Below are positions 1,751 through 4,940 of a DNA stretch of 64,000 nt, piece after piece. The notes under the pieces are model-generated. The model searched no databases, was not told where the DNA came from, and saw only the letters and a list, made by a program, of their open reading frames with translations. The stretch is taken from NCBI GenBank assembly GCA_963575745.1, contig CAUYUJ010000032.1, positions 1 through 64,000 on the forward strand. The letters run 5' to 3'. Each line of letters starts with the position of its first letter. Positions within the stretch are counted from its first letter, which is position 1. The position numbers and the translations under genes are program-made. This DNA comes from Prorocentrum cordatum (Eukaryota).

Positions 1751-2359
1751 TTTAGCCTTTGGGGGCTCGACACTATGAGAAACAAATATATGACGTCGGG
1801 AGTCTGGGGAGGAGGTTCGGGAGCGCGCGTCACAGACCCAGACATCCTCCTAAAGCATTTCGCCAGAGGGATCGAACAGAAAAAATGAAAATGAAAAGTT
1901 AGATAATAATAAAAAAAGGGGACGGACTGGATGCCCGAGGCCCCAAAAAAAGTGCCACAGGGGGGGGGGGGGGGGGCGGACTGCATGCCCGAGGCTGCCC
2001 GCCCAGATCGCCCCGTCCGGCAGCCGTGTCGCCGGAGACTGCTTCACAGTGTACTCGGGAGCCGTGCGCTCGCCCCAATGCCGGCTACAGTCGGGGCCCT
2101 GCAGAAGGAACCCTTTTCGTTGGGGAGGGGCTCCGCGTTCCTTGAGTGTTTCACAGCTTGCCTCCGGCTTTCCTTAGGTTTTCGACCGGAGATCGAAGGT
2201 TAACTTGTGGTAAAAAAGGGGGCCCGTTCCTTATTTAGGGCCCAGGCAGCCACGTCTCCTCCTCCTCCTCCTCCTCCTCCTCCTCCTCCTCCTCCTCCTC
2301 CTTTCAAGACCCTTTCAATAAGGGCTCCGCAGCGCCCCGCGGCGGGGCGCTGTAGCCCG

Positions 2360-4883
2360 TCAGATGAAGTACTCCCTGTGGTAGCCGAACGCGACGAACT
2401 TGTCCCCCCCTCGGTGGCCGCCAGCCTCCTCCACCTGAGGAGGGCGGCACGCTCACCACCCGAGGGGGCGATGGCGATGAGGAAGCCGCTGTTCAGGTTG
2501 GTTACCTCCGTGAAGCCCTGCTGGTGCCCGATGCTCTGCTGGTGCCTGGTGCTCTGCTGGTTCCCGTTGGTGTGCTGCTGGTTCTCGGGGGTGTGCTTCT
2601 GGTTCCCGTAGGTGTGCTGCTGGTTCCCGTCGGCGCGGGGTGGAGGCTTGGCCGCCAGGCTGGTGTTGGGACACGCCGTCGGAGACGCTCTCCTGGGGCG
2701 TGGTGTTTCTGGTGGCGTCGCCGTGGTCGGCTGGGCCATCAGGGTCATCGGGATCGATCTCGTCCTCTGGGGGGTCGGGCACGTCCTCGAGGATGAAGCG
2801 CACATTCTTGGTCGTAGGGGTTGGTGTGGTGGCAGCCGTCGGAGTCCTCCTCGTGGGAGTAGTCCTGGGGCTGCTGGTCTTCCTTCTGCGTCCTCCTGCG
2901 TCCTCCTGCACGATCTTCACCTCGTTCTCGCCGTCAGTTCGCACTTCGACGCCGGCCAGGATCGCATCGATTCGGGCGGGGATGGGAGGTGAAGGCTCCA
3001 TGGCGGCCTTGGAGGCGGCCATGGAGGCGAAGGCTGCGGCTTTGGGGCGAACGATTCCCGCCGCCTGGAGTGCTGCAGTGGCTGCGGCATGCCATTGGGG
3101 TGTCGTTCGGAGGTCGGGGGTCGTGGGGCCTCTTGGTCGTTGGGCGGGGTCGTCGGGGGAGGATCGTCGGGGAAGGGGCGTCGAAGGGCGTCGTAGGGTC
3201 GTCGAGGGGAGCCGCGTGTCGTGAGGCTTGGGGCGTCGAGGGGGGGGCGGGGGTCTTCGAGGATCACGGGTCTCCTGGGGCACGCCGTCGGACATGGTGT
3301 CCTGGGGCGTGGCGTCGTGGTCGGCGTCGCTGTCAGAGTCCTCCTGGTCGGAGTCATCGTGCTGGGCCGTCTGAGTCCTTCTCGTCCGTCGTCGTCGGCA
3401 ACAACTGGGTCCTCTTACTGGTACTCTCCTCCTCGTGCTCGGGATTGTCCTCCTGATCGTCCGTGTCGCCCTCCTCGGAATCGCTCCCGTAGCTCCCGTA
3501 GCTCGTCTCGTAGCTCCCGAGGGCCGCCTCGGAGTCGCTCCCGTTGCGCCCGTAGCTCTTCTCGTAGCCCTCCTCGGAGTCGCTCCCGTAGCTCTCGTTG
3601 CCCCCGTATCTCTTCCCGTAGCTCTTCCCGTAGCTCTTCTCGTAGCCCTTCTCGTAGCTCTCGTTGCTCCCGTAGTTCTCGTTGCTCCCGTAGCTCCTCC
3701 CGTAGTTCTCGTGGCTCTTCCCGTAGCTCTCGTTGCTCCCGTAGCTCTTCCCGCAGCTCTTCTCGTAGCCCTTCTTGTGGCCGTTGATCCGCAGGGCCTC
3801 GTACGTGTCGACGTGGTCGCCGATCCTCTGGGCCTCGAACGCGTCGACGTGTTCGCTGATCCTCTGGGCTCCGTACGTGTCGACGTGGTCGCCGATCCAC
3901 TGGGCCTCGTACGTGTCCTGTTTCTCGTGGCCGTTGGTCCGCTGGGCCTCGTACGTGTCGACTTGGTCGCCGATCCGCTGGGACTCGTACTGCTTCGCGT
4001 GGCCGTCGGTCTGCTGGGCCTCGTAGGTGTCGATGTGGCCGCCGATCCGCAGGGCCTCGTACGTGTCGACGTGGTTGCCGATCCGCTGGGCCTCGAACGC
4101 GTCGACGTGTTCGCTGATCCGCTGGGCCTCGTACTTGTCGACGTGGTCGCCGATCCGCTGGGCCTCGTACGTGTCCTGGGCCTCGTACATGTCGACTTTG
4201 TCGCCGATCCGCTGGGCCTCGTACTGCTTCGCGTGGCCGTCGGTCTTCTGGGCCTCGTAGGTGTCGGTGTGGCCGCCGATCCGCTGGGCCTCGTACGTGT
4301 CGATGTGGCCGGCGTGGCCGGCGCCGCGGCGCGCCGTGGCGGCATGCGCGGCCTCCTCCGCGACCTGTCGGAGGCGGTCGGCCGAGGGGTAGGCGACCCC
4401 TGGAGATGGGGTGGTCCAACAGTGCGCCTGCGGCACCTCGATGACTATGTACTTGGCGTATTGCTGCTGGTCGTGCTTCGTGTCGGCGCCCGTGTTGTTG
4501 GCCTCGGCCCGCGGCCTGCTGCCGCCGTGGCCCAGCCGAGGTCCGGCTGCGGCCAGGGCGATGTCACCCGCGGTGGCGGCCGCGAAGCCCGTCGCGGGCG
4601 CGCGTGCCGCGTGCCAGGCGGCGTTGCGGCGCCTGCGCGCGCCGCCTGGGAGGGGCCGCCCCTCGGCCAGGCACTGCAGGGCCGGGCGCGAGGCGGCCTC
4701 GCGATCCCGCCATGACCCCGGCGCGTTGTCGCGGCTGCCGAGGGCCCGGCGGAGGCCCGCCTCGCAGGCCAGCCGGCAGCGCATCCTGGCCGCTCGCCGG
4801 GCCGCCGAGGCTCCCTTCTCCTGGGCCTCGCGGGCCCGTGTCCCAGTGGGCCGCCATGCTGGCGGGCAGCCCCCCGCAGCCAT
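2360..4883 (-). pseudogene. Repeat-rich ORF of the SL-capped element; 509 aa to the first stop at 3354, probably continuing through frameshifts
   Basis: ATG at 4883 lies 35 nt after the SL. It encodes 12-aa repeats (TYEAQRIGDHVD) and YGS/YEK repeats. Acidic, Pro-rich coding-like sequence continues in another frame below ~3360, and a plausible C-terminus (GGDKFVAFGYHREYFI*) ends at 2360. Confidence 0.55.
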
Positions 4884-4918
4884 GAGAGCACGCCGAGCGG
4901 AGCCCGCGCGCGAGCTGG

Positions 4919-4940
4919 CTTGAGCCAAAATGGCTACGGA
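4919..4940 (-). other. Full 22-nt dinoflagellate spliced leader (genomic copy)
   Basis: Minus strand reads TCCGTAGCCATTTTGGCTCAAG, an exact match to DinoSL DCCGTAGCCATTTTGGCTCAAG. Confidence 0.97.

Follow-up and report, generated by a model that had tools for sequence, protein, structure and literature searches.

By what route do transcripts that carry a spliced leader (SL) return to dinoflagellate genomes, and which enzyme takes them there? This question is raised by a locus of Prorocentrum cordatum (GenBank assembly GCA_963575745.1, contig CAUYUJ010000032.1, positions 1 to 64,000; this whole stretch of 64,000 nt is called the window, and all coordinates are those of the window), in which an insert on the minus strand, 2303-4940, begins with a complete SL directly behind a (GGA)n microsatellite and ends in a second (GGA)n tract. 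A long interspersed nuclear element (LINE) with the same junctions lies 31 kb away. A first-pass annotation of this DNA took the insert for a candidate non-autonomous partner of that element, both being mobilized by one enzyme. Our analysis leads to a different view of the insert: on balance, 2303-4940 appears to be a processed retrocopy that spans the full length of a trans-spliced mRNA from a gene family of a high-GC dinoflagellate and is integrated in (GGA)n, and we judge it somewhat probable that cellular mRNAs are retroposed in trans by SL-capped LINEs associated with microsatellites.

DNA-encoded SLs are well established as marks of retroposed genes (PMC5585692, PMC6050394, PMC12014239, PMC7245778). 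'Recycled processed cDNAs' with the dinoflagellate SL (DinoSL) were described by Song et al. 2017 (PMC5585692) and Song et al. 2018 (PMC6050394), and in Slamovits & Keeling 2008 cited therein, and at least one in five genes of the dinoflagellates sequenced is an SL-tagged retrogene (PMC6050394, PMC5585692, PMC12014239). The same three papers state that the source of the reverse transcriptase (RT), a long terminal repeat (LTR) or a non-LTR element, is unknown; one holds that the activities are 'presumably provided by LINEs' (PMC5585692), and another, under 'Mechanism of Retroposition', leans to Ty1/copia (PMC6050394). The recycling of SL-bearing transcripts into the genome, to which the first-pass annotation pointed, is in itself a known process (PMC5585692, PMC6050394).

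RESULTS

Anatomy of the insert

The 21-mer CCGTAGCCATTTTGGCTCAAG occurs exactly at 4919-4939 and, with the T at 4940, makes up the full 22-nt dinoflagellate SL, which stands directly behind a (GGA)n stretch that is perfect over 4941-4995, just as the first-pass annotation had described it. The source mRNA had its capped 5′ end at this SL, which is followed by CCAGCTCG and then by a 5′ untranslated region (UTR) and an ATG; an SL RNA gene at 4919-4940 was considered and rejected, there being no GTA... donor or intron behind the SL. The 35-nt UTR (4918-4884) and the intronless, repeat-rich open reading frame (ORF) of the earlier description were also recovered (Table 1). The latter, P0001, is an uninterrupted run of 509 codons in which an N-terminal module is followed by 12-residue and shorter tandem repeats; Tandem Repeats Finder (TRF) detects a 36-nt unit in 10.7 copies at 3786-4175, with more copies up to 4311, besides units of 9-18 nt.

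The stop codon of P0001 lies ∼1 kb short of the 3′ end of the insert, and the reading frame is broken near 3357-3373. Homology to paralogues continues from 3373 to 2675 in another frame, and the copy would therefore be frameshifted, unless the assembly has an indel near the frame break. No protein homologue of the remaining part, 2303-2674, was found among the proteins fetched. At the 3′ end the insert runs from position 2303 into a perfect 47-nt (GGA)n tract, and poly(A) is absent there, as reported in the first pass, with just AAA before the repeat (2302-2304).

The same description had noted no visible RT or endonuclease, and none of these families was found by Pfam in eight stop-free frames of 196-663 residues across the insert or in P0001. 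The sole Pfam row for the insert frames, HTH_50, was far under the cut-off, and Rfam gave no family at the gathering score in the window.

Table 1. Features of the two inserts and of other repeat-rich regions in the 64,000-nt window
Feature	Coordinates	Strand	Evidence
Insert 2303-4940
Upstream (GGA)n microsatellite, presumed target	4941-5011	-	TRF: period 3, 24 copies, 91% matches
Complete 22-nt dinoflagellate SL, T + CCGTAGCCATTTTGGCTCAAG	4919-4940	-	Exact match
5′ UTR, 35 nt	4884-4918	-	Direct sequence reading
Intronless ORF P0001, 509 codons + stop	3354-4883	-	ATG 4883, stop 3354-3356, uninterrupted
N-terminal conserved module, ∼120 residues	about 4524-4883	-	Family comparison
12-residue DTYEAQRIGDHV-type repeats in P0001	3786-4311	-	TRF
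SYG-type short repeats in P0001, 9-18-nt units	3483-3775	-	TRF
Family coding sequence continued in another frame	2675-3373	-	tblastn/blastx of paralogues P0003, P0006, P0002, P0004; E 1e-7 to 2e-3
3′ part of the putative retrocopy	2303-2674	-	Ends at last unique base 2303
18/21-nt repeats	2518-2630	-	TRF
Possible C-terminus ...FGYHREYFI-stop	stop codon 2362-2360	-	Sequence reading
10-bp GC hairpin	2352-2330	-	Fold prediction
Downstream (GGA)n, perfect, 47 nt	2256-2302	-	TRF: 15.7 copies, 100%; same orientation as upstream tract
Insert 36520-42182
SL-capped LINE, read as defective	36520-42182	-	SL, Pfam, alignment to full-length LINE ORF2 proteins
Upstream (GGA)n	42183-42226	-	
SL	42182-42161	-	Exact match
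Relic SL, one base missing	42160-42147	-	
5′ UTR, 126 nt	after relic SL	-	
ORF1, 392 codons, RanBP2-like zinc finger	42034-40859	-	
ORF2 in pieces: endonuclease/exonuclease/phosphatase (EEP) endonuclease, RT with core deleted, RNase H; frameshift near 39300		-	
3′ UTR, 112 nt, then (GGA)n, without poly(A)	end 36520	-	
Elsewhere in the window
copia-type RT fragment, RVT_2	44621-45763	+	E 1.2e-6, below gathering score
(TAGCA)n	15638-16069		TRF
(CGA)n, 1.6 kb	16214-17784		TRF
388-nt unit x3	18191-19324		TRF
101-nt unit x16	23163-24815		TRF

The gene family behind the insert

Thirteen relatives of the insert ORF were found, eight of them named P. cordatum proteins, and its nearest named proteins are 'unnamed protein products' of this species. 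The module formed by the first ∼120 residues is present in 56 representative clusters (HMMER), nearly always at the N-terminus, where it heads unrelated, mostly unannotated tails (proteins P0005-P0064). It is rich in Arg and Ala, with the consensus ...WRPS..R...LG.SAARRAAR.RR..ACEAALR...PGSW.DRE.AARPAL...RVPG..RRRRNAAWHA...GF...AAAGPRLG, and no Pfam family corresponds to it. The predicted structure is helical (predicted local distance difference test score, pLDDT, 79), and no convincing solved relative emerged from this model: Foldseek gave no match at E ≤ 0.001, and the best Z in VIA was 4.0.

The 5′ UTRs of the family relatives differ. One family member, P0045, begins with PFWLKPARARA, which is the translated SL followed by the first six codons of the insert UTR, so that the first 18 nt of this UTR, when translated, match the start of a protein; the SL-UTR junction of the insert is therefore a genuine mRNA 5′ end of the family.

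Within the window blastn detected no second copy of either insert, and 2303-4940 is thus present once. Interior pieces of the insert are matched in three DNA-type public runs, for example 2601-2798 with 2 differences and 4402-4594 with 3, and positions inside the insert are met by 1-4 contigs per DNA-type run as against 37-115 at the flanking position 2144. The largest fraction of the words in any public run is ≤0.15, no RNA run being among those listed. In run X8, whose status as an RNA run is a guess, contigs of the relatives cease to match the insert exactly upstream of the ATG (loose end at 4883, 9 contigs). The single copy, the 1-4 contigs and the parting of the relatives at the ATG together give the picture of a single gene retrocopy. 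The insert looks like a one-off event of this kind; as far as its sequence features define it, the source was one gene of a lineage-specific and repeat-rich family, and the processed retrocopy apparently carries a frameshift. As an SL-tagged retrocopy it is an ordinary kind of object, which stands in an informative setting.

A LINE with the same junctions

The second insert, 36520-42182, appears by its coding remains to be a defective member of an APE-type (apurinic/apyrimidinic endonuclease) LINE family with trans-spliced RNA. Its Exo_endo_phos and RNase_H matches score below the Pfam cut-offs (23.2 bits versus 24.5 and 18.5 versus 25.8, respectively). Its ORF2 aligns over 87-97% of the C-terminal part to two full-length LINE proteins, P0016, with RVT_1 and Exo_endo_phos, and P0015, with RNase H, and in this alignment ∼155 codons are deleted from the RT core. 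A relic SL stands behind the complete one, from which it follows that the LINE has passed through at least two rounds of retrotransposition. No relatives of this LINE were found in IMG/VR, among proteins of 264-842 residues or in loci L001-L265, and the SL-headed ORFs from environmental contigs are unrelated to its ORF1 by blastp.

Each of the two inserts starts at the capped 5′ end of a trans-spliced RNA. What the two have in common is the SL plus 3 nt (blastn) and the repeat, nothing else. Both SLs lie on the minus strand directly behind (GGA)n, and both inserts have (GGA)n on the sense strand at either end and lack poly(A). The 21-mer CCGTAGCCATTTTGGCTCAAG has two exact matches in the 64 kb as against 0 expected in 100 shuffles; there is no further SL site at ≤3 mismatches in the window, and a search of the window for degenerate or relic SLs gave one chance-level match besides the two SL sites. 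The window holds 41 perfect GGA/TCC tracts of at least 15 nt. For a random oriented position, the probability of adjoining a perfect (GGA)n tract with n of at least 5, at a gap of ≤1, is 6.4e-4 in this window, and the probability that both SLs stand behind (GGA)n by chance is about 4e-7. The density of the repeat, which had been named as a possible trivial cause of the adjacency, thus fails to explain it within the window, and the grammar common to the junctions of both inserts is real, chance falling far short of explaining it.

The insert 2303-4940 is itself flanked by very abundant repeat families (2048-2220 and 5272-5395, also represented at 50762-50919 and 6387-6514), which at 5374 reach 30-77 contigs per public run, next to the counts at 2144 given above. 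These flanking repeats have no link to (GGA)n tracts. That the flank might be a repeat unit that carries (GGA)n was considered and rejected, as the copy of 2086-2240 at 50762-50919, an 87% copy of one flanking repeat, has no (CCT)n beside it.

SL copies in other genomes and the element L266

A scan of metagenome contigs for the SL yielded at least 126 loci with at least 132 distinct sites. The sites listed comprise 28 SL RNA genes, all of which continue as GTA/GTG...TTTT, 14 sites of an AT-rich class, 8 with short upstream DNA and 82 other genomic copies. With a microsatellite defined as at least 12 nt of a repeat of period ≤6 that ends ≤3 nt from the SL, 11 of the 82 genomic SLs among the listed matches adjoin one, as compared with 29 of 3153 control positions in the same loci (odds ratio 17, Fisher 1.8e-9); the corresponding numbers are 0 of 28 for the listed SL RNA genes and 0 of 14 for the AT-rich class. 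On contigs filed in prokaryote metagenome-assembled genomes (MAGs; 20 loci), microsatellites adjoin 2 of 13 SLs versus 2 of 1053 controls, and two further SL sites on such contigs have imperfect repeats by eye. An ORF with a RanBP2-like finger stands behind the SL at 2 of 8 microsatellite-adjacent sites and at 1 of 50 others, which are small numbers.

One of these loci, L266 (G001:C12:1-9096), is a 9.1-kb contig of 70% GC that is filed in a bacterial MAG and is most likely mis-binned dinoflagellate DNA. Its 5′ part consists of (AGAGAGAC)n/(AG)n, the SL without its first base and an ORF1 with a RanBP zinc ribbon; its ORF2 has 2536 codons, with Exo_endo_phos, RVT_1 and RNase_H all above the cut-offs, and its 3′ end is A6 followed by (GA)n. 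L266 is apparently an intact SL-capped LINE, distantly related to P0015 and P0016 and with no detectable relation to the LINE of the window. A LINE of another family in another repeat means that the arrangement microsatellite-SL-LINE-microsatellite recurs, and L266 shows that the microsatellite-SL architecture belongs to SL-capped LINEs. No same-motif tract was found downstream of the other environmental SL-microsatellite copies, most of whose contigs are too short to reach the 3′ end.

DISCUSSION

Our results provide a candidate route for the retroposition of SL-bearing mRNAs. Taken together, the shared junctions, the LINE homology, L266 and the excess of SLs at microsatellites make one enzyme class for both inserts the most economical reading, in agreement with the first-pass annotation on this point. 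We lean toward regarding 2303-4940 as a passive passenger of such an enzyme and not as a dedicated non-autonomous element.

In the proposed mechanism, an APE-type LINE like 36520-42182, with its RanBP2-like finger in ORF1 and its endonuclease, RT and RNase H in ORF2, would nick or make use of (GGA)n/(TCC)n DNA. The (TCC)n 3′ end exposed in this way could pair with GGA repeats at or near the 3′ end of an RNA and prime reverse transcription, and the poly(A) tail would stay uncopied as priming occurs on the GGA repeats; for a resident copy, these might derive from read-through into its own flanking repeat. Synthesis of the cDNA would run up to the capped SL, and the cDNA would be joined into the same repeat. 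The normal template would be the trans-spliced RNA of the LINE itself, and a cellular mRNA might be taken in trans now and then, as is done by L1 for processed pseudogenes. Priming of this kind by (TCC)n on GGA repeats would thus explain both the missing poly(A) and the identical junctions.

The strongest alternative, which we nevertheless consider unlikely, is endonuclease-independent capture, where cDNA made by any RT, for example that of a Ty1/copia element, is patched into double-strand breaks, which arise preferentially in microsatellites. The LINE and the mRNA copy would then have like junctions since both landed in fragile repeats, and not by way of one targeting enzyme. That environmental SLs adjoin microsatellites of many unrelated motifs speaks for capture, as do the copia-type RT fragment of the window (RVT_2, Table 1) and the leaning of one of the retrogene papers to Ty1/copia (PMC6050394). 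However, the orientation with respect to the repeat is the same for either insert, neither of them has the poly(A) that a captured full-length cDNA should carry, and the LINEs themselves, that of the window and L266, have the architecture in question. The over-representation of RanBP-finger ORF1s at microsatellite-adjacent SLs (2/8 versus 1/50) also argues against capture, within the limits of such small numbers.

The role given to the insert by the first-pass annotation, that of a dedicated non-autonomous retroelement with a LINE partner and conserved ends, spreading as a family, seems to us improbable. It would agree with the lack of RT and endonuclease, with the junction grammar common to insert and LINE, and with the occurrence of the N-terminal module at the head of many different proteins, a pattern that 3′ transduction by a mobile 5′ module could yield. 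Against it stand the single copy in 64 kb, the contig counts inside the insert relative to position 2144, and the exact divergence of the nine X8 contigs upstream of the ATG. Moreover, the LINE and the insert have only the repeat and the SL plus 3 nt in common, with no shared 3′ region, and the insert body belongs to a protein-coding family whose members appear to diverge as ordinary genes do. A misassembly, in which two low-complexity (GGA)n stretches served to splice cDNA-like sequence into the contig, is very improbable: both junctions do lie in repeats, where assemblers err, yet contigs of three DNA-type runs match the interior of the insert with few differences and the same architecture is found in unrelated assemblies (L266 and other environmental SL sites).

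Several observations weigh against the retroposition of mRNAs by microsatellite-associated LINEs as outlined here. The two inserts have no common 3′ UTR sequence and no significant 3′ structure (z -0.6 and -1.2), their 3′ folds also being dissimilar; the LINE copy of the window is a defective one, and its family yielded no intact copy. The species is represented by two SL sites in a 64-kb window, a target-site duplication is unreadable inside a repeat, and independent reads do not bridge the (GGA)n junctions, which are skipped as repeats; the public-contig joints at the insert are short, of low depth and uninformative, and bridge neither a junction nor an empty site. In the metagenomes, the 11 of 82 sites include L098, by eye a viral-type AT-rich site, so that the conservative count is 10 of 81, and L266 is the one element in which the environmental 3′ end is reached. 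The environmental motifs are diverse (TA, CA, ATC, CT, GGGT, AATGT, AG), with no GGA among them; repeats that are fragile in general would account for this diversity just as well as specific endonucleases would. In L266 an A6, not expected if priming were purely on the repeat, is retained ahead of the 3′ repeat, and the mechanism leaves both this A6 and the diversity of repeats elsewhere unexplained.

The insert resembles the known DinoSL retrogenes in that a DNA-encoded SL stands directly before an intronless copy, and relic SLs such as that of the window LINE record repeated rounds in those genes too. It differs in that it comes with a candidate LINE, microsatellite flanks and no poly(A), whereas the papers on these retrogenes name no enzyme in the portions available (PMC5585692, PMC6050394). 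The same portions make no mention of microsatellite flanks, of missing poly(A) or of an SL-capped LINE with the same junctions, and the terms microsatellite and target site are absent from the available text of these two papers and of PMC12014239. A literature search for DinoSL together with microsatellites listed PMC11453091, which does not connect the two, and PMC5029500, supplements and subscription papers being outside this search.

A comparison can also be made with other LINE systems. The processed pseudogenes made by L1 terminate in poly(A) and are bounded by target-site duplications at T-rich sites, in contrast to the insert, which has no poly(A) and has (GGA)n on both sides. The likeness lies in the copying of a cellular mRNA by LINE machinery and in a product that is full-length, intronless and dead on arrival (PMC5585692; PMC3747384).

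The LINEs SLACS, CRE and NeSL-1 target SL genes. As with the elements described here, a LINE is found beside SL sequence; those elements insert into SL RNA genes, whereas here the SL would be the element's own trans-spliced 5′ end and the target a microsatellite. 'Spliced leader exons' are listed among LINE targets in PMC4640811. Non-LTR elements specific for microsatellites are known as well (Kojima & Fujiwara 2004, cited in PMC4640811), including Togen, which is specific for (TG)n, and some HERO families. According to the same source, target-specific LINE families are mostly of the clades with a restriction-like endonuclease, and microsatellite-specific LINEs are known from animals (PMC4640811). 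Their copies, like those studied here, are embedded in a simple repeat of one kind, which flanks them at either end. The present elements differ from them in having an APE/EEP endonuclease together with RNase H, in being SL-capped and in appearing to take cellular mRNAs; their target specificity rests on one copy per family, the window LINE in (GGA)n and L266 in (AG)n.

The eel element UnaL2 exemplifies a LINE that forms a pair with a short interspersed element (SINE) through a common 3′ tail. A similar idea is put forward here, with (GGA)n as the common tail that would let another RNA use the RT of the LINE. Unlike a SINE, the insert has no repeated family, no common 3′ UTR and no small-RNA head, and the passenger would be an mRNA copy. 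LINE-SINE pairs with a common 3′ tail are treated in PMC5786205 and PMC3747384.

It is possible, and here we are more tentative, that gene retroposition in dinoflagellates at large is due to SL-capped APE-type LINEs that prime on nicked microsatellites, with one repeat motif per LINE family. If so, a matching repeat close to the 3′ end would suffice for an mRNA of any kind to be copied without poly(A), and each insertion would leave the repeat on both sides, so that microsatellites would be seeded and spread through the very large genomes of dinoflagellates. Earlier work tags >20% of genes as retrogenes, and the enzyme responsible for them would then be named. Such a reading offers an explanation for retrocopies that lack poly(A) and links retroposition to the heavy microsatellite load, and a retrocopy and a LINE with identical, improbable junctions, together with L266 elsewhere, make a concrete and testable candidate for the retroposition machinery.

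ADDITIONAL OBSERVATIONS

SLs encoded in viral genomes

Exact SLs were also met at 134 distinct sites in giant-virus MAG contigs of IMG/VR (L127-L245, mostly named GVMAG; median locus GC 21%), and the AT-rich class among L001-L126 (e.g. L002, L018, L061-L063) is of the same kind. An A precedes CCGTAG at 127 of 133 giant-virus SL sites. The motif TTGAWWA occurs ≤60 nt upstream at 79 of 134 viral sites, starting 45-46 nt before the SL in 72 of these 79; AAAATTGA is the octamer of the mimivirus early promoter. At 100 of the 134 sites an ATG-initiated ORF of at least 100 codons is present within 200 nt behind the SL, and among 68 SL-headed viral ORFs scanned, 8 have DUF4116, 2 CCCH fingers, 2 RING, 1 NADAR and 1 ABC_tran, with no family in 52. 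From these sequence patterns, the arrangement reads as viruses hard-coding the host leader behind a promoter of their own. Among the papers listed by searches on giant viruses and the dinoflagellate SL, none has a title or abstract that describes such an arrangement. In the IMG/VR contig L193, a 759-codon ORF with a picorna-like RdRP_1 stands directly behind a DNA-encoded SL; this may be an endogenous element of the dinoRNAV type, the kind treated in PMC10235124.

Remainder of the window

The window has a GC content of about 60% and is laden with repeats. In 95 long open frames outside the two inserts, the RVT_2 fragment is the only other retroelement signal, and the other Pfam rows, MFS_1 (below cut-off) and CitMHS, were taken as low-complexity matches. 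Very long simple and tandem repeats, some of whose units are listed in Table 1, occupy 11961-17784, 18191-19324 and 23163-25590.

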